DNA from: an uncultured Ignavibacteria bacterium
Lineage (GTDB): Bacteria > Zixibacteria > MSB-5A5 > UBA10806 > 4484-95
DNA length: 42,503 nucleotides
Assembly (NCBI GenBank): GCA_964614835.1
Contig: CAZTNJ010000003.1
Coordinates: 1-42,503 of the forward strand
Direction of reading: 5' to 3'
Program-made: the position numbers and the translations under genes
The notes under the pieces: generated by a model
Told to the model about the DNA's origin: nothing
Seen by the model: the letters and a program-made list of their open reading frames with translations, nothing else
Database searches by the model: none
In this document: in pieces, positions 18,111-38,720 of the stretch
Layout: each line of letters starts with the position of its first letter
How positions within the stretch are numbered: position 1 is the stretch's first letter

Positions 18111-18935
18111 TTATTGGCCGATAAACGGTCCGAACATAAAATTAGTCAACAGGTTATCAAGTTTGTCGGCAGTTTTTTTCAAATTACAGTAATGGCGAAA
18201 TGTGTTTCCAAAACCAGCCCCTTTTACACGTGGCTGTTCGGGATCGAATTCCCAGGGGTGAAGGTATACTATCACCGGCCTATTCTCGGCGTTTACCTTT
18301 CGGATATTTCGCCTGATAAAAAAATCAGGATATAAACGAAAATAACCGCCTCCCCCCGCCGGGATTCGTCTGCCCAGAAAAACAACCACTGTCATGGGAT
18401 ATTCTTTTATGATGGCCTTGCCATTTTCAACAATATCAAATGGCGCGAGTGGAACAGAAACGGCATCGCCATAGCGAAAATGCTTCATGGGGAAGAGCGA
18501 TGAATCGTAGGTTATTCCGAAATCGGCCAATATCTGGAACTTCTCGATATCCTTGGCCGAAAGCGAAAAGCTTGGAGCACGGAAGCCCTTAACTTTTATT
18601 CCCGTTATTCCCTCAATGATATCCAGCGATTTTTTAACATCAACAGCGAATTCATCTGGTGTCATATCATATATCAGTTTGTGTTCGTAGCCGTGGCTGG
18701 CGATTTCATGTTTGGCGGCGCTGATTTTTTTGAGCATTGATTGATGCCGTTCAGCAATCCATCCTAAAATAAAAAAAGTAGCCTTAACTTGATGCCGGTC
18801 AAGGATTGCTAAAATCGTATCGGTATTTTTCTCAACCCTCGATAAGTGCCTATCCCAATCTTTTCGGTTGATAGCCGCCGCAAGACCAGAGACCTGAAAA
18901 TGCTCTTCGATGTCAAAACTAAGAATATTTCTCAT
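18111..18935 (-). CDS. Polysaccharide deacetylase (NodB fold plus DUF3473), PEP-CTERM/XrtA-locus-type subfamily
   Basis: NILSFDIEEHFQVS, VKATFFILGWIAERH, HEIASHGYEH (metal His motif), GFRAPSFS, PAGGGGYFRLYP, YLHPWEFDPEQPR, FRHYCNL. Confidence 0.9.
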   Translation of the reverse strand: MRNILSFDIEEHFQVSGLAAAINRKDWDRHLSRVEKNTDTILAILDRHQVKATFFILGWIAERHQSMLKKISAAKHEIASHGYEHKLIYDMTPDEFAVDVKKSLDIIEGITGIKVKGFRAPSFSLSAKDIEKFQILADFGITYDSSLFPMKHFRYGDAVSVPLAPFDIVENGKAIIKEYPMTVVVFLGRRIPAGGGGYFRLYPDFFIRRNIRKVNAENRPVIVYLHPWEFDPEQPRVKGAGFGNTFRHYCNLKKTADKLDNLLTNFMFGPFIGQ

Positions 18936-19012
18936 TTTTATTGACTGGCACTTGGCGCCAAGATAATTCGATGTGTGTCGTTTCTTGGCGTAATCAATTT
19001 GGAAATTCGCAT

Positions 19013-19036
19013 AGGGGCGTAAAGCAATACGCCCCT
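19013..19036 (-). terminator. Hairpin between the NadE-like and deacetylase genes
   Basis: AGGGGCGTA-aagcaa-TACGCCCCT, a 9-bp stem 10 nt after the stop at 19046. There is no T-run, so it may only attenuate. Confidence 0.4.
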
Positions 19037-19045
19037 ACCGTGATA

Positions 19046-20014
19046 TTATAGTTTAAACTCTGAAGGTTCGGCGCGCAGATATTCGGTGGTGCGTTTTTTC
19101 TGGTCAAGATCGCGCCAGACATTCTGCACCTGTTCTTCAGTTAAATTCATTACTTTAGCGGTTTCGGCAATCGATACGTGATGTTCTTTGGCGTACCAGA
19201 GCAAATCCATAATTTTAAATTTAAGCCCATAGAAAAACTCTTCTTGAGTTTGCTCATCAGGATATGTATCTGTAGTCGGGGTTCGGTCCAGAATTCCCTT
19301 CGGCACTCCAAGGTACGCGCCCAATTGGAATACCTGCGTTTTAAACAGATGGGCAATCGGTTTGCAATCAGCGCCGCCATCGCCGTATTTAACGAAAAAT
19401 CCCTGATCGTGTTCGTTTTTATTGCCGGTTCCGATAACCGCGTAATTTAATTTTTCGGCATGATAGTAAAGTGTAAGCATCCTGATACGCTGCTTCATAT
19501 TCGAAGCCGCAACTATTTGAAGATATTCGGCAATAGGCAACCGCTTGGATATTGGTTCACCCCCGGGGGGAGTCGCGGTTAAACGGAATATGTTGAGCCT
19601 GTTTGACTCCATCAGGTTGGTCGGAAGCACGATTTTGGCTTTCCAGCCGGGGCCGTATTCGGGAAAAACTTTTCGGAACGCCTCGTCGCGGCGAGTATAA
19701 CAACCCATTCCTTCAAGCCCCTTACTGATGTCTTCGATGATATATTTGTAGCCATACGTTTTAGCCAATTCGATACCGAGCTTACTCGAATCGCCGGATG
19801 AATCCTTATCGGGCAAAAGTACGCCGAGCATTTTTTCGGGGCCAAATGCTCTGGCGCAGAGAGCCGCCACGACAGCCGAGTCTATCCCGCCGGAAGTCCC
19901 TACCACCGCGCCTGAACGCCGAAACCGGACATACACTTCATGGCGAAGAAATTCGACCAATTGATCGACAACTTTGGGACAATCGAGATTTAATATATCA
20001 GTGGAAAAAGCCAT
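19046..20014 (-). CDS. nadE: NAD+ synthetase-family PP-loop ATP-pyrophosphatase (NH3-dependent type, no glutaminase domain)
   Basis: PP-loop GTSGGIDSAV. NadE-like core AVIGTGNKNEHDQGFFVKYGDGGADCKPIAHLFKTQV and C-terminus TDTYPDEQTQEE..GL.F..MD. Its start overlaps the ligase stop as TAATG. Confidence 0.85.
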   Translation of the reverse strand: MAFSTDILNLDCPKVVDQLVEFLRHEVYVRFRRSGAVVGTSGGIDSAVVAALCARAFGPEKMLGVLLPDKDSSGDSSKLGIELAKTYGYKYIIEDISKGLEGMGCYTRRDEAFRKVFPEYGPGWKAKIVLPTNLMESNRLNIFRLTATPPGGEPISKRLPIAEYLQIVAASNMKQRIRMLTLYYHAEKLNYAVIGTGNKNEHDQGFFVKYGDGGADCKPIAHLFKTQVFQLGAYLGVPKGILDRTPTTDTYPDEQTQEEFFYGLKFKIMDLLWYAKEHHVSIAETAKVMNLTEEQVQNVWRDLDQKKRTTEYLRAEPSEFKL

Positions 20015-21552
20015 TACGACCTCGCTTTCTGTTTGTGCTGTTCGACCAATTCGAACTTCTTTATTTTTCCCGATGTGGTTTTAGGCAATGCCTCAATATC
20101 GATTATTTCGCCGGGGATTTTAAATGGCGCGAGATTGAGTCGAAGATGTTTCCGTAATTCCTTATGATCGATCTTTTCCTTTGTAACCAGGTACGCCACC
20201 AGCGCTTCTCCCAATATCTCGTCGGGAACGCCAATTACAGCCGATTCGACAACTCCTGGGAATTCGGCGATTACTTCTTCAATTTCTTTGGGGGAAATTC
20301 TATGGGCGCCGCTTTTTATCATATCGGAACTGCGGCTGACTACGAAAATATAACCATCTTCATCAACCGTGGCCAAATCTCCGGTGTGAAGCCCATCCGC
20401 TTTAAGGACTTTTTCAGTGGCTTCGGGATTATTCCAGTAGCCAACCATAATATTATCGCCTTGCGCCACAATTTCGCCGACCTCACCGGGTTTGCAGGGT
20501 TGACCGTTTTCATCGCGAACGGTCAGGGTGACCCCCGGAATAGCGCGACCGATAGAGCCGATTTTTTCCAACAGCCGTTCCGGTTCCAGATAAGACAGCC
20601 GCGCCGAGGCTTCCGTCTGGCCGTACATGATATAGATTTTCAGATGCGGCATCGCCTCCATGATTTTCTGGGTCAAAGCCGGAGTCATTGGGCCGCCGGC
20701 CTGGGTGATATAGCGTAAATGTTCGAAACGGTAGTTGCGGATATTAGATTTGTGCATCAGGATAGCGAAAGTCGATGGCACTCCCGAAAAGCCGGTAACC
20801 CGCTCCTGCGACATGATTTCTAAAATTACATTTGGATATGCGAAACGATTGTCGATTACAACGCTTCCGCCGCAGCACATGTGGGTTAATAGAAGTGAAT
20901 TGCCATAGGAATAGTAAAATGGCAAAATCGCCATCACCCGGTCTTCCGGTTTCAGTTCAAGGTACTTGACAATCGATGTCGTATTAGCGTGGAGATTTTT
21001 ATGCGAGAGCGTCACGCCCTTGGGTTTGCCCGTCGTTCCCGACGTATAAATTATTTGGGCGATATCTTCCTCTTTACGGCTAACATGAGGCCTACCGGGA
21101 TCGCCTTTTAACTGGATGTCGAGCCAGAACTTCTTTTCAATGTCTTTTGGGTAATGCTCGTATTGGCCATCGGAGATGATAAATTTCAGCGATGGAATAT
21201 CCTGGTAGATTTCTTTAACCACGCCCGCTGAATTTTTATTTAGAATCAAACCCGTTACCTCGCAATCGCCGAGAATATTGCGGAAATCGCGGATCGTTCC
21301 CTGGGAATTCAGACCAACGACAACGCCGCCCGCTTTAAGAATCGCGAAATAGGCGATAATGTAATTTATCGATGATTCCAATAAAAGCCCAACCCGATCG
21401 CCGGGCTTTAACTTGAAATCAAGCAATTGATTGGCCAGACGATTGATTCCCGCCTCTAGCTCAAGGTAGTTTATCCTGCCGCCAAGGTGAATGGCGGCGT
21501 CCTTATAAGGAAATCGTTCGGCATTCTGTTCCACGTATTCATGCAGAAGCAT
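20014..21552 (-). CDS. Adenylate-forming (ANL) ligase, DltA / acyl-CoA-ligase-like
   Basis: IIYTSGTTGKPKGV, YGQTEA, GDLATVDEDGYIFVVSRSSDMIKSG and a C-terminal TTSGKIKK motif. 512 aa. Confidence 0.9.
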   Translation of the reverse strand: MLLHEYVEQNAERFPYKDAAIHLGGRINYLELEAGINRLANQLLDFKLKPGDRVGLLLESSINYIIAYFAILKAGGVVVGLNSQGTIRDFRNILGDCEVTGLILNKNSAGVVKEIYQDIPSLKFIISDGQYEHYPKDIEKKFWLDIQLKGDPGRPHVSRKEEDIAQIIYTSGTTGKPKGVTLSHKNLHANTTSIVKYLELKPEDRVMAILPFYYSYGNSLLLTHMCCGGSVVIDNRFAYPNVILEIMSQERVTGFSGVPSTFAILMHKSNIRNYRFEHLRYITQAGGPMTPALTQKIMEAMPHLKIYIMYGQTEASARLSYLEPERLLEKIGSIGRAIPGVTLTVRDENGQPCKPGEVGEIVAQGDNIMVGYWNNPEATEKVLKADGLHTGDLATVDEDGYIFVVSRSSDMIKSGAHRISPKEIEEVIAEFPGVVESAVIGVPDEILGEALVAYLVTKEKIDHKELRKHLRLNLAPFKIPGEIIDIEALPKTTSGKIKKFELVEQHKQKARS

Positions 21553-21567
21553 AATTATCCTATCGAT

Positions 21568-21816
21568 TTACTTATTGAGTTTCCTTGTCACATAAGCGGT
21601 AAGACTCTGAACCGAATCAAGGTTTTTCGGAACCAGTTCATCGTCTTCGACAGTAATTCCAAACGTTTGTTCGATAAAACCGACCAATTCCAGTACGCCG
21701 GTCGAATCGATAATACCCTTATCAAGCAACGAGGCGTCGTCGGTTAATTCATCGGGCGCCCTGCCGAGCATGAAGTTATCGATTATAAATTCCCTGAATT
21801 GTTTCGCGATATCCAA
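21568..21816 (-). CDS. Acyl/peptidyl carrier protein (DltC-like)
   Basis: 82 aa with the phosphopantetheine site LLDKGIIDSTGVLELVGFIE. TTG start preceded by GGAGG. Lies 15 nt upstream of the ligase gene. Confidence 0.85.
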   Translation of the reverse strand: MDIAKQFREFIIDNFMLGRAPDELTDDASLLDKGIIDSTGVLELVGFIEQTFGITVEDDELVPKNLDSVQSLTAYVTRKLNK

Positions 21817-21843: not shown

Positions 21844-23169
21844 CTATAGTATCGGTAAATAATTTTCCAGTTCATAACCGGTGATTGTTATCCGATACTT
21901 ATCCCATTCAACCTTTTTATTTTCGATAAGCTGATTAAAAACGTGCTCTCCCAGAGTCTTTTTCATCAACTCGGATTTCTCGAATTCTCTAATAGCGTTT
22001 TCGAGCGAACCGGGCAGGGTGTCGATATTATGCTTTCTGCGCTCGGCTTCGTTCATCTCAAAAATGTTCTCTTCGATCGGGTCGCCCAGTTTCAATCCTT
22101 TCTTAATGCCATCGTAACCGGAGGCGATCATTACCGCGAAAGCCAGATACGGATTGCAGGCAGGATCCGGGCTTCTTAATTCGACACGGGTGGCATTTTC
22201 TTTGCCGACACGGTACATCGGGATACGAACCAATGATGACCGGTTGCGCCTTCCCCATGATATATATACAGGAGCTTCATATCCCGGCACAAGTCTTTTA
22301 TATGAATTCACCCACTGGTTGGTAACCAGGCAGAATTCTTTGACATGGCCCAACAGCCCGGCAACATAACTCTTGGCTGTAGCCGACAAGTTATATTCGT
22401 CGTTTTTCTCATAGAAAGCGTTTTTGCCGTCCTTAAACAGCGATTGATGAACGTGCATTCCCGAACCGTTTTCGCCAAATATCGGTTTGGGCATGAAACT
22501 GGCATAAAACCCTTCTGCCAGCGCGATCTCTTTTACCACCAGACGATAAATCATCGCCGCATCCGCCATCTTAAGGGCTTCTTGATATTTCAGGTCGATT
22601 TCCTGTTGCGATGGGGCGACCTCGTGATGCGAACATTCTACTTGAATTCCCATATCTTCAAGCGCCGAGGCTGTTTTCTTGCGCATCTTGGTGGCGGCAT
22701 CGACTGTCGAATAGTCGAAATATCCGCCCCGATCGATTATCTGGGGATTTTCGCTGTTTTTGAAATAGAAATATTCCATTTCCGGGCCCAGATAAGCTTT
22801 AAATCCATCCTTGGCGATTTCTTTTAATTGTCTTTTAAGGATATAACGCGAATCGCCCTCATAAGGCTCGCCATGGGGAGTATAGATATCGCAGAAAATT
22901 ACGGCCACCCTCTCATCCCCCAGCTCCCATGGAATAATCGTAAATGTTTCGAGATCAGGTTTGGCCTCCAAATCAGATTCTTCAATTCGGACAAATCCCT
23001 CAATCGAAGAACCATCAAAACCCTGACCGTGCTCTAAAACCTCCGCGATTTCCGAACGGGTTATCGTCATCCCCTTCAGCCGACCGAGGATATCTGAAAA
23101 CCATAAACGGATATAATTTACTTTGTTTTTGTCAAGCAATTCAAGTACTTCTTCTTTGGTGCGTGCCAT
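21844..23169 (-). CDS. glnA: Glutamine synthetase, type I (short GSI-alpha form, 441 aa)
   Basis: DGSSIEGF, GPEMEYFYF, CSHHEVAPSQQEIDLKY, ENGSGMHVHQSL, NRSSLVRIP. AAGGAG lies 6 nt before the ATG. Confidence 0.95.
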   Translation of the reverse strand: MARTKEEVLELLDKNKVNYIRLWFSDILGRLKGMTITRSEIAEVLEHGQGFDGSSIEGFVRIEESDLEAKPDLETFTIIPWELGDERVAVIFCDIYTPHGEPYEGDSRYILKRQLKEIAKDGFKAYLGPEMEYFYFKNSENPQIIDRGGYFDYSTVDAATKMRKKTASALEDMGIQVECSHHEVAPSQQEIDLKYQEALKMADAAMIYRLVVKEIALAEGFYASFMPKPIFGENGSGMHVHQSLFKDGKNAFYEKNDEYNLSATAKSYVAGLLGHVKEFCLVTNQWVNSYKRLVPGYEAPVYISWGRRNRSSLVRIPMYRVGKENATRVELRSPDPACNPYLAFAVMIASGYDGIKKGLKLGDPIEENIFEMNEAERRKHNIDTLPGSLENAIREFEKSELMKKTLGEHVFNQLIENKKVEWDKYRITITGYELENYLPIL

Positions 23170-23312
23170 TTATTTCTCCTTACTTTAAAATATCCCGATT
23201 ATTCTTATTTATTATCGGCATCCATTGTTAAAAGTTTTTTACAAAATTCTCAAAATGGCTGAATTTTATTTCGGCCCTCTTTAATGTCTATTTGTGTCAG
23301 ATTTGTATAAAA

Positions 23313-24275
23313 TTAAATATACTGTTGGTGCCAGCCAATGGCACGCTGCAACCCGTCGCTTAGCGAAACCTTGGTTTGAAAGCCGAATAACGAATTCGCC
23401 TTTCGCAAGTCGGGCACCCGACGCCGGACATCCTCGTAACCGCCGCCAAAACTTTCGTAGGCGACATATTCAATCTTCGACCTCGACTCGGTCATTTGGA
23501 TTATTCTTTTCGCCAACTCGATAATGGAGATCTCTTCGGCAGACCCGATATTGATTATCTGCCCATTTGCCCGTTCCGATTCAAGCGCCAGCGCGATTCC
23601 TTCCACGGTATCGCTGATATAACAAAAGCTCCGGGTTTGCTCACCATCGCCGTGAACCGTGATTGGTAAATTTCTCAGCGCTTGTTCGATAAACACCGCT
23701 TGTGGCCCTCCCCACCAGGAACGGTGGTTCCCCGGGCCATAACTTCCAAAAAACCGCAAAACCGCTACCGGAAGTTCCCGTTCACTATGATACGATAATG
23801 CCAGATGTTCATCGAATACTTTAGAGGCCGCATAAGCCCACCTTCTTACCGTAGATTGCCCCAATACCAAATCGCTGGTTTCTGAAAACGGGGGACAGGG
23901 GTTTTTACCGTAAACATCTGAGGTTGATGCGATTACGGTCTTAAGCTTTAAGCCGGATGCGACCTCTAAGACAATTCTGGTGCCATCGTTATTAACCGTA
24001 AGTGTTTTTAAGGCATCGCCATAACGAGGGATTTTATAGGCGGCGAGGTGAACCAGGAAATTTGCATTCAGACAGGCTTTTTCCACGATACCCGGCGTAC
24101 GAATATCAGCATATATGAATTCGAATTTTCGATTTTGTTCGATTTCTTTGATGTTATTTTTATTGCCGTGGGAAAGATCATCGATAATTGTTACATCCCA
24201 GGCGCGGTTAATGTAATATTTGGCCAAATTTGAGCCGATAAAACCGGCTCCGCCCGTTATAACTACTTTTGGCAT
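23313..24275 (-). CDS. NAD-dependent sugar-nucleotide epimerase/dehydratase (extended SDR)
   Basis: VVITGGAGFIGSNL and catalytic YAASKVFDE. Its start overlaps the wecB stop as TAATG. Confidence 0.9.
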   Translation of the reverse strand: MPKVVITGGAGFIGSNLAKYYINRAWDVTIIDDLSHGNKNNIKEIEQNRKFEFIYADIRTPGIVEKACLNANFLVHLAAYKIPRYGDALKTLTVNNDGTRIVLEVASGLKLKTVIASTSDVYGKNPCPPFSETSDLVLGQSTVRRWAYAASKVFDEHLALSYHSERELPVAVLRFFGSYGPGNHRSWWGGPQAVFIEQALRNLPITVHGDGEQTRSFCYISDTVEGIALALESERANGQIINIGSAEEISIIELAKRIIQMTESRSKIEYVAYESFGGGYEDVRRRVPDLRKANSLFGFQTKVSLSDGLQRAIGWHQQYI

Positions 24276-25435
24276 TATTCGAAAAGGTTATTAGTTTTAA
24301 TCTTGCGCGTGCCCGGTTCAACCTGGGTAAATGATTTGGCGATAACATCCGCGATACGGGTAGCAGTATTCCCATCCCAATATTTCGGAATGGCAGTTCC
24401 CCTTGTCTTATTGGCAATAATCATCTCGGCAGTGGCGGTTATTTTTTCCGGGAATGGCCCCACGATTATATTGGTGCCTTCCTTAACGGTCACGATCCAC
24501 TCGGTATTTTTTCTGATAGTCAGGCAGGGGATACCCAGAGCGCTTGATTCGACTTGCATCGTTCCCGAATCGGTCATCAGCAAAGCAGCCCCTTTTTCGA
24601 GGGCCAGAAAATCGGGATACTTTGATAAATCGTATAGAATTAGACTGCGCTCATCGAAATTGCCCAATAAGCCGAATTTTTGGATATCTTCCTTTACCCT
24701 GGGATAGCAGACAAATACCACCGGTATTGTTCTGGCGATCTGGCGGGCCGCCGAAATTATCCCCTTTAGATTTTCGAAATGAGTGGTATTGGTCCGTCGG
24801 TGAAGCGACAACAACGCGTAGCCGCTTGGTACCAGCCCCAAAGATTCCGGGGTTCGCGACTTATTGGCCAGAGGCATGAATTTGTTCATGGCATCTATCA
24901 TTATGTTGCCGACAAAGAACACGTTCTCATCATTATTGCCTTCAGCCTTGATATTGGTATGAGCGTTGCAATCGGTTACGAAAAATATATCGCTGATGCT
25001 ATCGACCATTTTGCGATTTATATCAGTGCTGGACACATTCCCCGGGCATCGTAAACCGGCTTCGATGTGGGCAATCTTAATTCCATTTCGGGCGGCCGAA
25101 ATAGCCGTTCCGAGCGCCGCATCGGAGCCGCCACTTACTACAATCATGTCGGGTTTTAATTCGGAAAAGCATTTATCGGCCTCGATGATAGTCTGGGAGG
25201 TACATTCAGGATGCGCCCCGTTTTTAACGTTTAAATAAATTTGAGGTTTGGGCAATTTTAACTCGTCGAACAGATAAGCGGCATCCGCCCTTGAAAAAGG
25301 ACTGCCAGTATAAAGTACAATCGGTTCGAGAAAATCATAGTAGCGGGCAAAATTGTCGATTAAGGGAGAAATCTTAATCAGGTTTTTATTCGAGTTTACA
25401 ACAACTACGATTTTTTTTAATCCGCCCGAGTACAA
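24275..25435 (-). CDS. wecB: UDP-N-acetylglucosamine 2-epimerase family protein
   Basis: Family layout seen by eye: ..KPDMIVVSGGSDAALGTAISAARNGIKIAHIEAGLR.., ..LLSLHRRTN.., ..ALLMTDSGTMQVESSALGIPCLTIRKNTEW... 386 aa. Confidence 0.88.
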   Translation of the reverse strand: MYSGGLKKIVVVVNSNKNLIKISPLIDNFARYYDFLEPIVLYTGSPFSRADAAYLFDELKLPKPQIYLNVKNGAHPECTSQTIIEADKCFSELKPDMIVVSGGSDAALGTAISAARNGIKIAHIEAGLRCPGNVSSTDINRKMVDSISDIFFVTDCNAHTNIKAEGNNDENVFFVGNIMIDAMNKFMPLANKSRTPESLGLVPSGYALLSLHRRTNTTHFENLKGIISAARQIARTIPVVFVCYPRVKEDIQKFGLLGNFDERSLILYDLSKYPDFLALEKGAALLMTDSGTMQVESSALGIPCLTIRKNTEWIVTVKEGTNIIVGPFPEKITATAEMIIANKTRGTAIPKYWDGNTATRIADVIAKSFTQVEPGTRKIKTNNLFE

Positions 25436-25520: not shown

Positions 25521-26423
25521 CTATTTTGTGGCGTTCTTAAGTTGAGCCATAATCCGTGGGATTTTTATAAAGTCGAATTCAAGTAAAAGCCGCGTTAATT
25601 TAAACTCGGCCCAGGTAAGGTTGCCGTAATTTTTTATATTGCTTATTGGATTCGTAACCTGGCGGGGGATATGGCGGTCAAATTCCCAAAGAGGGAAATT
25701 TAATACCGCGGGGATATTTTTGCGGTCGAATTCCCGAAGACATCGCCGTAAAAACCAGAGTGGAAACAACCTGATCTTCCCTGATTGCCCAAACTCCATT
25801 TTAATCCCGGCCAAATTACTTTTGCTTGGAGAAAAGATGGTGATATCGGAACCATCCTCAAACGAGACATTAAAAATATTGCCATCCGACCTTATCCTCT
25901 TGGGGAGCACATCGACCAAGCAATAACGATACCCCGCAGATGCCAATTTCTGAAGATATTGGGGCATCCCGCCGGGATTTCCCTTAAACATCGCCCCTAA
26001 AAAATGATTATCTGTGATTAACGCCAACTCATCTTTCAATTCTGTCAGATTGCTCTGGCATTTTCCACTGGTAAAGTCCAGGCAGATTCCGATTTCGTGT
26101 CCCCGCGAACTTACCAGCGATACCACTTCCGGGAAATCTTTTAACAAATCGGGTGTGATATAGAAATTCGTTTCAACCCTATGTTTATCAACGTGATCCA
26201 GCAAGTGAAGGATATTTGGAATCGCCCGAGAGCGGGCTCGCCCATTTGTTTGGCTGGGAAGAAAATCGTTTATTTCAACGGCCAGAATATGGGCATTCAC
26301 CTTTATTTCGCAAGGAAAGTAGCTTATTTCGCCCAGATTGTAGCCTATATTTTTTATTACTCTGTTGCTCATATTTTTACAACCACTTATCTTTTCCGGA
26401 AATTGCTCAATCAATATAATCAA
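25521..26423 (-). CDS. Divergent paralog of the DUF3473/NodB deacetylase, with catalytic motifs degenerate
   Basis: Aligns by eye to 18111-18935: ILAVEINDF vs ILSFDIEEHF, GHEIGICLDF vs KHEIASHGYEH, KIRLFPLWFLRRCLREF vs YFRLYPDFFIRRNIRKV, FPLWEFDRHIPR vs LHPWEFDPEQPR, IKNYGNL vs FRHYCNL. An alternative start exists at 26372 (MSNRV). Confidence 0.75.
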   Translation of the reverse strand: MIILIEQFPEKISGCKNMSNRVIKNIGYNLGEISYFPCEIKVNAHILAVEINDFLPSQTNGRARSRAIPNILHLLDHVDKHRVETNFYITPDLLKDFPEVVSLVSSRGHEIGICLDFTSGKCQSNLTELKDELALITDNHFLGAMFKGNPGGMPQYLQKLASAGYRYCLVDVLPKRIRSDGNIFNVSFEDGSDITIFSPSKSNLAGIKMEFGQSGKIRLFPLWFLRRCLREFDRKNIPAVLNFPLWEFDRHIPRQVTNPISNIKNYGNLTWAEFKLTRLLLEFDFIKIPRIMAQLKNATK

Positions 26424-35388: not shown

Positions 35389-36798
35389 TTACAATCGTAA
35401 TTTCCCGATAAACTCGTCAACCTCGGGCGACCCGCCTTGAAATATCAGATAACCATCAAACGGCTCGCGTTCGGTGATCTCGCCGGCAAAAGGAGTTAAC
35501 ATGAGCTCTTTGACTTTATCAAGATCATGGCTATGGCCCAGCGCCCAACCCAATTTCACATAGGCAACTTCAGGGAGCATATTTCCGGCGGGGACCACCC
35601 CCAGATGCATTAAATCGCGGCCGGTATCGTAAACGAACATCTGAACATAACCCCAGAGGGTCTGGACTGTCATATATACGGCCACTCCTTTTTTAACCGC
35701 GTTTTTCAGCGGTTCATAGAGCGGCTTGTTGACATGACCCAATCCGGTACCGGCGATAACGATTCCCTTATAGCCATTATCAACTAAGCTATCAATAATA
35801 TCCGGCTTCATGTTTGGATAGTAATAAACGATGCTAACTCGGTCATCAAACGCGGTATCAATTTTAATCTCACGGTCGTTACGTCTGTGTTTATAATCGG
35901 TTTTAATGGGAGTCATTTTACCTGGTTCGACCATCGCTAAAGGAACATCGCCGATTGTTCGGAATGTCGAACGATAGGAAGAATGCATTTTCCGTACTCT
36001 TGTACCCCGATGAAGCAGATTGTATTTATCCGAAGTTGGGCCAAACATACAAACCATGACCTCGGCAATATCGGCATGGGCCGCAGTCCAGACAGCGCAA
36101 CGAAGATTGAAAGCGGCATCCGATGACGGCCTATCCGATGAGCGCTGCGAACCGACCATTACAATCGGCACGGGGGAATTTTGCACCATAAACGACAAAA
36201 TACCGGCGGTGTGATGCATGGTATCGGTGCCGTGTCCGATCACTATGCCGCTGACGCCGTTTTTCACCTCGCGGCCAATAGCCTCGCCCAGACAGATCCA
36301 TTGTTCCGGTCCCATATTTTCGCTAAAAATCCCGAACAGCTTTTCAGTTTTGAGATTACAGATATCCGCCAACTCCGGCACGGCGCCATATAATTCGCCC
36401 GGACTAAAAGCCGGGATAACCGCGCCGGTACGATAATCGAGTCTTGATGCTATCGTGCCGCCTGTCCCTAAAAGCGTCACGTTTGGTTTTTCGGGATCAC
36501 TGGGGAAATCTTTTTCGGGAATCTTATAGTGAGCCTCTTTATAGCCGATCTCTTTTGCTTCTTTTATTGATGTCGCCAGAACGCCGATATTGTAGCCATT
36601 GTGCATTTTAAGCACAATATGACGGTCATTGGCGGTTTCCGAACGGGGCAAGATTACGCCCTTAAACGATCCCTTATCTGTAGTTATTTCCACGTCGGAC
36701 CACACCCGGACTCCAAGTTCTTTCAGCCTGGCGAGAGCAAGTCCTTTATACCCCTTGAAAGAGGCTGAATCATTTGCGTTATTTTCAGATTTTGCCAT
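35389..36798 (-). CDS. gatD: Glu-tRNA(Gln) amidotransferase subunit D, archaeal type (asparaginase-fold GatD)
   Basis: GatD-specific N-terminal domain (VEITTDKGSFKGVILPRSE..HIVLKMHNGYNIGV) followed by the asparaginase fold LLGTGGTIASRLDYRTG and IVIGHGTDTMHHTA. 469 aa. Lies 11 nt downstream of gatE. Confidence 0.88.
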   Translation of the reverse strand: MAKSENNANDSASFKGYKGLALARLKELGVRVWSDVEITTDKGSFKGVILPRSETANDRHIVLKMHNGYNIGVLATSIKEAKEIGYKEAHYKIPEKDFPSDPEKPNVTLLGTGGTIASRLDYRTGAVIPAFSPGELYGAVPELADICNLKTEKLFGIFSENMGPEQWICLGEAIGREVKNGVSGIVIGHGTDTMHHTAGILSFMVQNSPVPIVMVGSQRSSDRPSSDAAFNLRCAVWTAAHADIAEVMVCMFGPTSDKYNLLHRGTRVRKMHSSYRSTFRTIGDVPLAMVEPGKMTPIKTDYKHRRNDREIKIDTAFDDRVSIVYYYPNMKPDIIDSLVDNGYKGIVIAGTGLGHVNKPLYEPLKNAVKKGVAVYMTVQTLWGYVQMFVYDTGRDLMHLGVVPAGNMLPEVAYVKLGWALGHSHDLDKVKELMLTPFAGEITEREPFDGYLIFQGGSPEVDEFIGKLRL

Positions 36799-36809
36799 TT
36801 TTTCCGCCG

Positions 36810-38720
36810 TTATTGGGATGCTTTTTGGGAAATTTCCCGATATAGAGATGCGCCATCAAGTCGATTGGCGTATTTATTTTTCACCTGGCCGCAGATAAAC
36901 TCAATCCGCTTGACATTATCGCGAAAAACGCCATCAGATGTCTCTTCTATCAGAGATTTTATCGTGGTTTGCACTTCGGGGCTCTTAATATCTACTAAAC
37001 CATAATTCAAGATAAGTTGATCGATAGTTTCACTGCAACCGGCGGCTATCTTTTTAAAAATCTCGAACAATGCATCTTTGGAAATACCGCCAGATTTATA
37101 AGCCTCGAAAACCTTCACGAACTCGCCGTTATAGACCCTAAGATTTTCCCGGTCTTTTATATTAAGATTCTTAATCGCGCTCCAGATCAATTCCGGCGAT
37201 AATTTTAGCTTTTTGTAAATGTTTTCGAACGCCTCCAAGTATGGCGATACGATAACTTTCATAACTATCGACTCCGGTACGCCCGCTTTTATGAGCCGTT
37301 CTTCTATTTTATAAGCCGGTTCGGGCAATTCGGCGCGTAACCGGGAAATCCAATCTTTGGTAATCTCGACCGGTGGGCTGTCCGTATCGGGATACATTCT
37401 GTCTGCCCCGGGAAGAATTCGCTCAAAACCGGTAGTGCCGTCCGCGTGCGCCTGACGGGTTTCATTCGGAACGCCCTTGGTCGCTTCGATCGCGCGAATC
37501 TTGATTTCCGATAGCGCCGTTTGAACATCGGCAGCCGGCCCCCAAACCACTACTATTGCATCCGTATACTTGCAATCGCAAGTTTTCCGAATCAGTTGCC
37601 AGTCATCGGCCGTAAAGCCTGCCATAAATGGGATGTCGCTGACCGCGAGATTCGGTTTGTCATCCAAACAGGCGATTACCTGAATCCTTCCCGATAGCTC
37701 ATCGGTGAAAGTTTGTCCGGGCTGCATCGGCCAGCTTAATACTCCTGCGAAGCCATCGATTTTTATCCCTTTTACCGACCACCCTTTTTCAAGAGCTTTC
37801 CGAATTATGGGAATCTTGGTATTTTGAAATACAGGGGCCAGGTCTATTTTTTCGCCATGAACGGTTTTGTCGTTAATACCGCGCAGGCGGAGGGCCTCTT
37901 TGATTTGTAGCAGCGCCGCCTGACGCTCAGCCTCGATACCGGTTAGCTTTTCGATCATCCAGGTTTGTGGAACGCCTTTGATTTCGGCACGTTGTCCGCC
38001 CGTGATCGATACGTTAACATCCTGTCGAACCGAACCTATCCCGCGACGAACCAACCCCGATGCCTTCAGTATCCGTCCCAGAAGCTCATTGACTTCCATC
38101 GCCTCCCGCGGGGTCTGCATATCCGGCCCGGTGATAACCTCCAGAAGCGGCATCGAAAGTCTGTCGGTGCGGAACACGATATCGTGCCCTTTGTCGGAAA
38201 TTTCCCGGCAGGCGTCTTCCTCGAGACAGAGATGAGTAATCGAAATCTTTCGGCCTTTATAGGGTACCCAGCCATCTACACCGACAATGGCAGTGCGTTG
38301 AAATCCGGTGGGGATTGAACCATCGAGATACTGTTTACGCGAGACGTGAAGTTCATCGACGACGGCGCAGTTTAGAAGCATCGCCAGCTTGAACGCGATA
38401 TCCAGCGCTTGAGCGTTAATAGGAAATGGCGGTGTATCGTCCATTTCGTAAGTGCAGGCGTTATCTCGATAGAGTTGATAAATAACGTTTTTCTTGGTTT
38501 TAAATTCCATCAAGGCGGTACCGTCGTATTCGCCGAGCTCAGAGAGGGTTGGGCGCATATGGCGGATAATTTCGCCTTCGGGTTTGTCGTTGCGATAATA
38601 GGCGGGGCAGCGGCAGAACAGTTTTCTTTGGGTTAACAGCTGCTGATGGATTTCCAGGCCGCATTTAAAGCCCATTTCGCGGTATTTATTTTCGGATTCG
38701 CTAATTGCAATCACCTCCAC
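36810..38720 (-). CDS. gatE: Glu-tRNA(Gln) amidotransferase subunit E, archaeal type (GatE)
   Basis: MGFKCGLEIHQQLLTQRKLFCRCP, RPTLSELGEYDGTA, DDTPP, LDGSIPTGFQRT, LCLEEDACRE, DRLSMPLLEVITGP, RRGIGSVRQDVNVSITGGQRAEIKGV. At 636 aa it has the inserted domain and C-terminal tail that distinguish GatE from roughly 480-aa GatB. GTG start at 38720 is uncertain. Confidence 0.88.
   Translation of the reverse strand: MEVIAISESENKYREMGFKCGLEIHQQLLTQRKLFCRCPAYYRNDKPEGEIIRHMRPTLSELGEYDGTALMEFKTKKNVIYQLYRDNACTYEMDDTPPFPINAQALDIAFKLAMLLNCAVVDELHVSRKQYLDGSIPTGFQRTAIVGVDGWVPYKGRKISITHLCLEEDACREISDKGHDIVFRTDRLSMPLLEVITGPDMQTPREAMEVNELLGRILKASGLVRRGIGSVRQDVNVSITGGQRAEIKGVPQTWMIEKLTGIEAERQAALLQIKEALRLRGINDKTVHGEKIDLAPVFQNTKIPIIRKALEKGWSVKGIKIDGFAGVLSWPMQPGQTFTDELSGRIQVIACLDDKPNLAVSDIPFMAGFTADDWQLIRKTCDCKYTDAIVVVWGPAADVQTALSEIKIRAIEATKGVPNETRQAHADGTTGFERILPGADRMYPDTDSPPVEITKDWISRLRAELPEPAYKIEERLIKAGVPESIVMKVIVSPYLEAFENIYKKLKLSPELIWSAIKNLNIKDRENLRVYNGEFVKVFEAYKSGGISKDALFEIFKKIAAGCSETIDQLILNYGLVDIKSPEVQTTIKSLIEETSDGVFRDNVKRIEFICGQVKNKYANRLDGASLYREISQKASQ

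Follow-up and report, generated by a model that had tools for sequence, protein, structure and literature searches.

On the pSymB replicon of Sinorhizobium meliloti, the genes asnB, smb20651, smb20650 and nadE1 form an asnB-acyl carrier protein (ACP)-ligase-nadE1 arrangement (Ramos-Vega et al. 2009, Microbiology 155:257, as cited in PMC7232532 and PMC5686131). The ligase gene smb20650 and the ACP gene smb20651 are transcribed together, and SMb20650 formed no oleoyl-CoA and did not substitute for FadD (PMC7232532). In E. coli, holo-SMb20651 was acylated in vivo by SMb20650 (PMC7232532, citing Ramos-Vega et al. 2009), while the function of SMb20651 was noted to require further study (PMC5686131). 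Here, we analyzed a related locus in a 42,503-nucleotide stretch of DNA, referred to as the window, from an uncultured bacterium of the phylum Zixibacteria (GenBank assembly GCA_964614835.1, contig CAZTNJ010000003.1). The locus encodes an ACP, an adenylate-forming ligase of the ANL type and a NadE-like enzyme behind the glutamine synthetase gene glnA. An earlier note, made from the letters of the window only, had regarded this arrangement as one not known to be described; the S. meliloti genes, reported in 2009, are its precedent. We found that the locus is a member of the cassette already noted in S. meliloti, and that its NadE-like gene is a specialised copy as the earlier note had suggested, while the analogy with the Dlt system drawn in the same note fails.

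The cassette is on the minus strand of the window. It consists of the genes for an 82-amino-acid ACP (21568..21816; PF00550, E 1.2e-7) with its serine in the motif GIIDSTG, a 512-amino-acid ANL ligase (20014..21552; PF00501 and PF13193) and a 322-amino-acid NadE-family PP-loop enzyme of the PRK00876/NF002048 subfamily (19046..20014), preceded by glnA (21844..23169), which encodes a type I-alpha glutamine synthetase (GSI-alpha) of 441 amino acids. The open reading frames confirmed the gene order and spacing proposed earlier: 27 nt separate the glnA stop codon from the ACP start codon, 15 nt separate the ACP stop codon from the ligase ATG, and the ligase stop codon overlaps the NadE-like start codon (-1 nt) as TAATG. 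The ACP gene has a TTG start codon with a GGAGG ribosome-binding site ahead of it. Pfam showed PF02540 alone in the NadE-like protein, in agreement with the view that it carries no glutaminase domain.

In S. meliloti 1021 (NC_003078.1), the genes for AsnB, ACP, the ANL ligase and the NadE-like protein are contiguous and co-oriented, and their products are 47-48%, 51% (SMb20651), 33% and 46% identical, respectively, to those of the cassette genes studied here. The two loci have in common the order ACP-ligase-NadE-like and the overlap of the ligase stop codon with the nadE start codon. The S. meliloti NadE-like protein also shares the insertion, the Val at T169 and the Tyr-Leu at H257/K258 described below (B. 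subtilis numbering). Unlike the S. meliloti cassette, whose neighbors are sugar-transport, aldo/keto reductase and min genes, the cassette in the window lies behind glnA and beside sugar-nucleotide and deacetylase genes, and the AsnB gene of this genome is on another contig (C225) and not adjacent. A protein search of plasmid records returned 116 matches, mostly from Sinorhizobium pSymB, and plasmids of Shinella and Mesorhizobium contained all four cassette genes. In pSymB of S. meliloti strain ml46, asnB is split into overlapping frames of 292 and 390 amino acids (L106 5171-7109), whereas it is intact in strain 1021 (L105 5172-7133); a frameshift or else a sequencing error accounts for the split.

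To place the NadE-like gene among the nadE genes of its own genome and phylum, we used a sample of 61 high-quality Zixibacteria genomes, in which the paralog was told apart from canonical NadE by its matching of the Pfam model in two stretches. The genome of the window encodes a canonical two-domain glutamine-dependent NadE of 593 amino acids on contig C37, between enolase and malic enzyme, which scored 701 bits against NF010588 (cut-off 479). Full-length canonical NadE was present in 61 of the 61 genomes. The NadE-like paralog (about 325 amino acids) was found in 33 of them, never without the canonical NadE, and was absent from the other 28. The idea that a housekeeping nadE had merely hitch-hiked into the operon was rejected, as the canonical enzyme is universal in the sample and the NadE-like paralog is accessory. 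Because the genome has a separate canonical NadE and the link to the ACP and ligase genes is kept across phyla, the NadE-like gene is a specialised accessory paralog and not the housekeeping nadE. The two findings that had been named as counting against specialisation, a sole nadE in the genome and a coupling unconserved in relatives, were both contradicted.

The ligase follows the same distribution. Among the 61 genomes, the 33 with a ligase ortholog (E <= 1e-90) were the very 33 that carry the NadE-like gene, and in 26 of them the two genes are within 5 kb of each other. The identical presence and absence of the two genes gave a Fisher p of 5e-18, uncorrected for phylogeny, and presence and absence were mixed within several families and genera. 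Three ligase orthologs contain one in-frame stop codon each (G034:C1:1038811-1040364, TAG; G008:C2:37255-38829, TAG; G050:C9:77348-78889, TAA), and these may be pseudogenes, assembly errors or cases of recoding.

We also found a conserved fourth partner that is absent from the earlier note, an AsnB-like glutamine amidotransferase of 665 amino acids. An AsnB ortholog (at least 60% identity) was present in 31 of the 33 genomes with the NadE-like gene and in 2 of the 28 others (p = 1e-12). In the cassette AsnB proteins, the N-terminal Cys (MCGI) is kept, as is the SGGLDS PP-loop. No AsnB gene was found in the window; the sole AsnB-like gene of this genome is on the 2.8-kb contig C225, and its product shares 71-77% identity with AsnB proteins linked to the cassette in other Zixibacteria. 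AsnB is likewise unlinked in the relative G028, and in the relative G032 it is directly upstream of glnA. At 1580-2566 of C225, beside the AsnB fragment, are a ThiF/MoeB-like E1 gene and a gene for a small ThiS/MoaD-like protein ending in GG, which are unrelated to the cassette.

In genome G045, one of the two that have the NadE-like gene and no AsnB ortholog, two divergent NadE-like copies flank the ligase gene (C1:1465689-1469550). In loci L023, L024 and L042, two NadE-like copies flank the ligase and ACP genes, and no AsnB was found in the fetched stretch. The paired copies are about 58% and 40% identical to the NadE-like protein of the window. These arrangements suggest that a second NadE-like enzyme can replace AsnB.

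To follow the cassette outside the sampled genomes, we scanned one genome per species, which gave 594 relatives, and examined the best 80 loci, distributed over Zixibacteria, Chloroflexota, Ignavibacteria, Calditrichota, Acidobacteriota, Planctomycetota and other phyla. An ANL ligase, ACP or AsnB gene was within 6 kb of the NadE-like gene in 62 of the 80 loci; among the 42 that have full flanks (at least 5 kb on both sides), the count was 39. Directly upstream of the NadE-like gene, 36 loci had AsnB and 17 had ANL, in most cases overlapping it or separated from it by under 50 nt. The linkage of the NadE-like, ACP and ligase genes is far beyond chance, and the results showed that ACP, ligase, NadE-like and AsnB genes are co-inherited as an accessory unit.

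We then compared the NadE-like protein with characterised enzymes of the NadE family. The protein matched PF02540 in two stretches (E = 2.7e-52) and scored 452 bits against NF002048 (PRK00876 'NAD(+) synthase'; cut-off 313). The second NadE-like paralog type, found in L023, also exceeded this cut-off, with 358 bits. One of 14 control genomes contained a match above the NF002048 cut-off, so that a model organism has a member of the subfamily. An AlphaFold2 model built from an alignment of 71 relatives had a pLDDT of 91.3. The top structures in a Foldseek search were NadE of P. horikoshii (2e18), NadE of H. pylori (1xng) and the nicotinamide mononucleotide (NMN) synthetase of F. tularensis (3fiu), with target-normalised TM-scores of 0.80-0.87 and 22-26% identity. 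The NadE-like protein thus has the same fold as canonical NadE (B. subtilis 1EE1/1KQP, H. pylori 1XNG, P. horikoshii 2E18) and NMN synthetase (3FIU), and shares with canonical NadE the SGGxDS PP-loop and the equivalents of D50, E162, R139, T157, K186, D173, N133 and R137. In contrast to the canonical enzymes, which have a short loop at this place, profile alignments showed in it a family-specific insertion of about 55 amino acids after the third strand (residues ~104-160), predicted to form two helices and a three-stranded sheet. It also differs in being accessory and in having ACP, ligase and AsnB, not NAD genes, as its operon partners.

For the comparison of residues, B. subtilis NadE (sequence in agreement with PDB 1EE1) and 11 Zixibacterial canonical NadEs were set against 71 members of the family. 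The PP-loop S41-GGID-S46 was invariant in the 71 relatives, and the ATP, Mg and catalytic residues (B. subtilis D50, R139, T157, E162, K186 and D173) were invariant in 71 of 71. Of the residues that are invariant in the canonical enzymes, S46, D50, S51, N133, R137, R139, T157, E162, D173, K186 and R259 were kept in all 71, and only T169 and K258 were replaced family-wide. T169, invariant in the 12 canonical NadEs, is Val in 68 of the 71 members and Cys in 3, while K258, also invariant in the 12, is Leu, Ile or Val in every one; in the NadE-like protein of the window the two are Val and Leu (V208 and L313). The C-terminal motif TEHKRxxP of canonical NadE accordingly reads TEYLRxxP in the NadE-like family. 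T169, H257 and K258 are presumably contacts of nicotinic acid adenine dinucleotide (NaAD) in the B. subtilis structures. Most core residues lining the NaAD cleft are kept. Because T169 and K258 are replaced while the ATP, Mg and catalytic residues are invariant, we infer that the ATP-pyrophosphatase/adenylation machinery of the NadE-like protein is intact and that its acceptor site is altered.

The name of the NF002048 family, NAD(+) synthase, would suit a genuine ammonia-dependent NAD synthetase isozyme that supplies NAD locally or under particular nitrogen regimes, and so would the conserved fold, the full set of ATP, Mg and catalytic residues, the many NaAD-cleft residues that are kept, and the presence of glnA next door in this genome. 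An isozyme is quite unlikely, however, as the paralog is always redundant with canonical NadE and missing from 28 of the 61 genomes, is strictly co-inherited with ligase, ACP and AsnB across phyla, has two canonical-invariant residues replaced family-wide in addition to a large insertion, and in some genomes occurs as two divergent copies in one cassette.

The ligase was below the cut-off of both of its closest NCBIfam models, PRK06187 (422 bits, cut-off 476) and TIGR03098 (383.7 bits, cut-off 592). Its top solved relatives were an A-domain of a nonribosomal peptide synthetase, a malonyl-CoA synthetase and fatty acyl-CoA synthetases. At the A4 position, a Ser of the ligase aligned to the alpha-amino-binding Asp of the LgrA A-domain. 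Because Ser replaces Asp at this position, the ligase probably acts on a carboxylic acid that has no alpha-amine. The 512-amino-acid ligase is probably the enzyme that loads the ACP. The ACP itself scored below the cut-off of every named NCBIfam ACP family, with only 21.6 bits against the DltC model NF003464 (cut-off 68). The DltA/DltC system resembles the cassette in that an adenylating enzyme loads a small dedicated carrier for cell-surface decoration. Unlike the Dlt system, the window contains no DltB (MBOAT) or DltD. With the A4 Asp absent from the ligase, Dlt-like or aminoacyl loading was rejected, and the DltA/DltC-like loading pair of the earlier note could not be upheld, given also the low DltC score.

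The cassette is usually located in polysaccharide or exosortase loci. Its neighbors include Wzz/tyrosine-kinase and Wzy-like genes, glycosyltransferases (GT) of families GT1, GT2 and GT4, methyltransferases, hexapeptide, GNAT/FemAB-like (nearest TIGR03019) and Acyl_transf_3 acyltransferases, and deacetylases. In three Zixibacterial loci the cassette adjoins an exosortase/EpsI pair. The exosortase gene (PF09721) is convergent with and immediately downstream of an AsnB-ACP-ligase-NadE-like cassette (L009 7043-8502, L011 8505-9988 and L012 7164-8027), with EpsI (DUF3485) between exosortase and cassette in L009 and L011. The exosortase and EpsI of the genome studied here are on contig C38. A literature search found no description of the PRK00876-type NadE subfamily in exosortase or polysaccharide contexts.

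The accessory gene set of the XrtA/PEP-CTERM system comprises a ligase (TIGR03098), an ACP, an amidotransferase (TIGR03108), a deacetylase (TIGR03006) and a FemAB-like protein (TIGR03019). These are the closest curated families for the cassette ligase, AsnB and the FemAB-like neighbors, and the deacetylase encoded downstream of the cassette in the window is a member of its family. On the other hand, the ligase is below the TIGR03098 cut-off, the cassette AsnB proteins reach 437-470 bits and are below the TIGR03108 cut-off of 817, and some of the genomes and contexts in which the cassette is found have no exosortase nearby. To our knowledge, the described XrtA set includes a pyridoxal phosphate-dependent decarboxylase and two hydrolases but lacks a NadE-like enzyme.

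With somewhat better than even confidence, we propose that the cassette makes an amide-bearing acyl group that is built on or delivered by the ACP, with the NadE-like enzyme and AsnB acting in the same pathway. The ligase would load an acyl group onto holo-ACP, a step shown for the S. meliloti homologs only. AsnB would adenylate a carboxylate and amidate it with glutamine. Because the adenylation machinery is kept and the acceptor site is remodelled, the NadE-like enzyme would adenylate a carboxylate other than that of NaAD, with free ammonia or some other amine as the recipient. The group would then be passed on to a cell-surface glycan or an exosortase-related acceptor by an acyltransferase, whose gene may be nearby or at another site. 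Amidation of a carrier-bound or sugar-bound carboxylate, as the earlier note had it, is plausible. That the substrate of the NadE-like enzyme is tethered to the ACP is a tentative suggestion, which we hold to be possible and less than probable. Similarly tentative is the idea that the PRK00876-type proteins are the first NadE-family amidoligases to act on ACP-tethered or ACP-delivered acyl groups, building with AsnB a nitrogen-rich acyl or lipid group. Such a group could decorate surface glycans or be the acceptor for exosortase attachment of PEP-CTERM proteins.

Several observations weigh against this proposal. No acyltransferase able to use acyl-ACP was found in the window. The co-occurrence statistics ignore shared ancestry, although the cassette genes have come and gone in a scattered way across several families and genera. 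The equivalents of N133, R137, Y144, F167/F168 and D177, which line the NaAD cleft of B. subtilis NadE, are retained in the NadE-like protein, so its sequence would be compatible with some residual NaAD activity, and the 20-26% identity between canonical NadE and the NadE-like protein is about the distance between the two canonical NadE groups. The cassettes of S. meliloti and Shinella are outside polysaccharide loci, and a glycan target is therefore not universal. In addition, C12:0 and C18:0 acyl forms of the S. meliloti ACP were reportedly detected in E. coli, and a plain fatty acyl chain would offer no free carboxylate to amidate.

The sugar genes around many cassettes raise a different possibility, that the NadE-like enzyme amidates the uronic-acid carboxylate of a sugar nucleotide or growing glycan to form a uronamide, with ACP and ligase carrying out a separate acylation step. 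AsnB homologs of the WbpS/WbtH type are thought to make uronamides. The cassette is usually within Wzx/Wzy-type polysaccharide loci, and in the Calditrichota loci L025, L033 and L054 the NadE-like gene is accompanied by deacetylase, short-chain dehydrogenase/reductase (SDR) and GT2 genes, with no ligase or ACP gene in the fetched flanks. Retained cleft residues of the NadE-like protein would fit a nucleotide-like substrate, and a UDP-GlcNAc 2-epimerase and an SDR are encoded upstream in the window. Nevertheless, no uronic-acid-forming dehydrogenase was seen in the window, the NadE-like gene is translationally coupled to the ligase or AsnB gene, its phyletic pattern matches that of the ligase in 61 of 61 genomes, and S. 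meliloti and Shinella have stand-alone four-gene cassettes without sugar genes. We therefore consider uronamide formation unlikely.

The co-occurrence of AsnB and the NadE-like enzyme bears on a further alternative. Two adenylating amidotransferase-type enzymes are conserved together, and AsnB can apparently give way to a second copy of the NadE-like enzyme, a pattern that points to two distinct or consecutive steps. Varied nucleophiles are used by PP-loop enzymes such as QueC, TilS and argininosuccinate synthetase, and the NadE-like enzyme could accordingly catalyze another adenylation-driven reaction, such as ligation to an amino sugar or amino acid, or a QueC-like dehydration of the amide made by AsnB to a nitrile. 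The equivalent of D173, which we take from the B. subtilis literature to be needed for the ammonia step, is invariant, and no sequence feature indicates a particular alternative nucleophile. This is the least probable of the alternatives considered here, and formation of an amide-bearing acyl group by the cassette is the reading that we retain.

The glnA gene is not a dedicated partner of the cassette. Its product scored 523.6 bits against TIGR00653 (cut-off 429) and 487 bits to the solved GSI-alpha 8s59, and a single ortholog with 60-82% identity was present in all 61 genomes with or without the cassette. Thus, glnA is the universal single-copy housekeeping GSI-alpha gene of the phylum. Passing the GlnA equivalog cut-off as a universal single copy, it was rejected as a specialised glutamine synthetase paralog such as a gamma-glutamyl-amine ligase. 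Among the sampled genomes of the phylum, adjacency of glnA and the cassette is confined to the family of the window (G028 and G032); outside this sample, some other metagenome-assembled genomes also have it (L013, L015, L016 and L035). The adjacency thus occurs in some lineages only. Because glnA is present in all 61 genomes regardless of the cassette, it is the cassette that is parked behind, and sometimes around, the housekeeping glnA and not the reverse, and the link is lineage-specific and positional. The 27-nt gap and the lack of a terminator between glnA and the ACP gene nonetheless make it likely that glnA and the cassette are co-transcribed, with glnA probably the first gene of the transcription unit. 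Co-transcription with the housekeeping glnA would link the expression of the cassette to nitrogen status.

At least 8,000 database protein clusters match the NadE-like protein, and the named ones are labelled "NAD(+) synthase", a label that is probably wrong for this protein. The cassette represents a four-gene pathway centered on a carrier protein and spread over many phyla, with S. meliloti as a genetically tractable representative. Solving the pathway would correct a widespread mis-annotation and define a new substrate class for NadE-type enzymes, and would possibly explain the recurring set of ligase, ACP and amidotransferase in exosortase and exopolysaccharide loci.

The sequences flanking the cassette were also analyzed. 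A sigma-70-like promoter match upstream of glnA (TAGACA-16-TAAAAT, 23263..23290, minus strand) came from a consensus scan and is weak evidence; the scan of the region for promoters and terminators gave no more matches than expected from shuffled sequences. Directly 3' of the NadE-like stop codon is a stem-loop without a U-tract (19008..19040, minus strand). The RNA fold of 18936-19060 on the minus strand had -35.8 kcal/mol (z = -3.9), and 0 of 200 shuffled sequences were as stable; the stem-loop is a possible terminator or stabiliser of the transcript end. The gene for the 274-amino-acid XrtA/PEP-CTERM-associated polysaccharide deacetylase (18111..18935, minus strand; PF01522 and PF11959) starts 110 nt downstream of the NadE-like gene, and its product is of the XrtA type, scoring 329 bits against TIGR03006 (cut-off 276). 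It is followed by a gene for a secreted protein of the MBL fold.

On the 5' side of glnA, the same strand carries, in order, genes for a 300-amino-acid DUF3473 protein that heads the gene run (25521-26423), a UDP-GlcNAc 2-epimerase-like protein (24275-25435; PF02350) and an SDR epimerase/dehydratase (23313-24275; PF01370/PF16363), and then a gap of 143 nt. The order of epimerase and SDR genes upstream is repeated in the relatives L007 and L008. The DUF3473 protein scored 59 bits against the XrtA deacetylase model (cut-off 276) and had no Polysacc_deac_1 match. Because only the C-terminal part of the deacetylase model was matched, it is probably a catalytically degenerate paralog of the deacetylase encoded at 18111-18935. 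Elsewhere in the window (35389-38720), an archaeal-type GatD/GatE operon for the Glu-tRNA-Gln amidotransferase was found in this bacterial genome.

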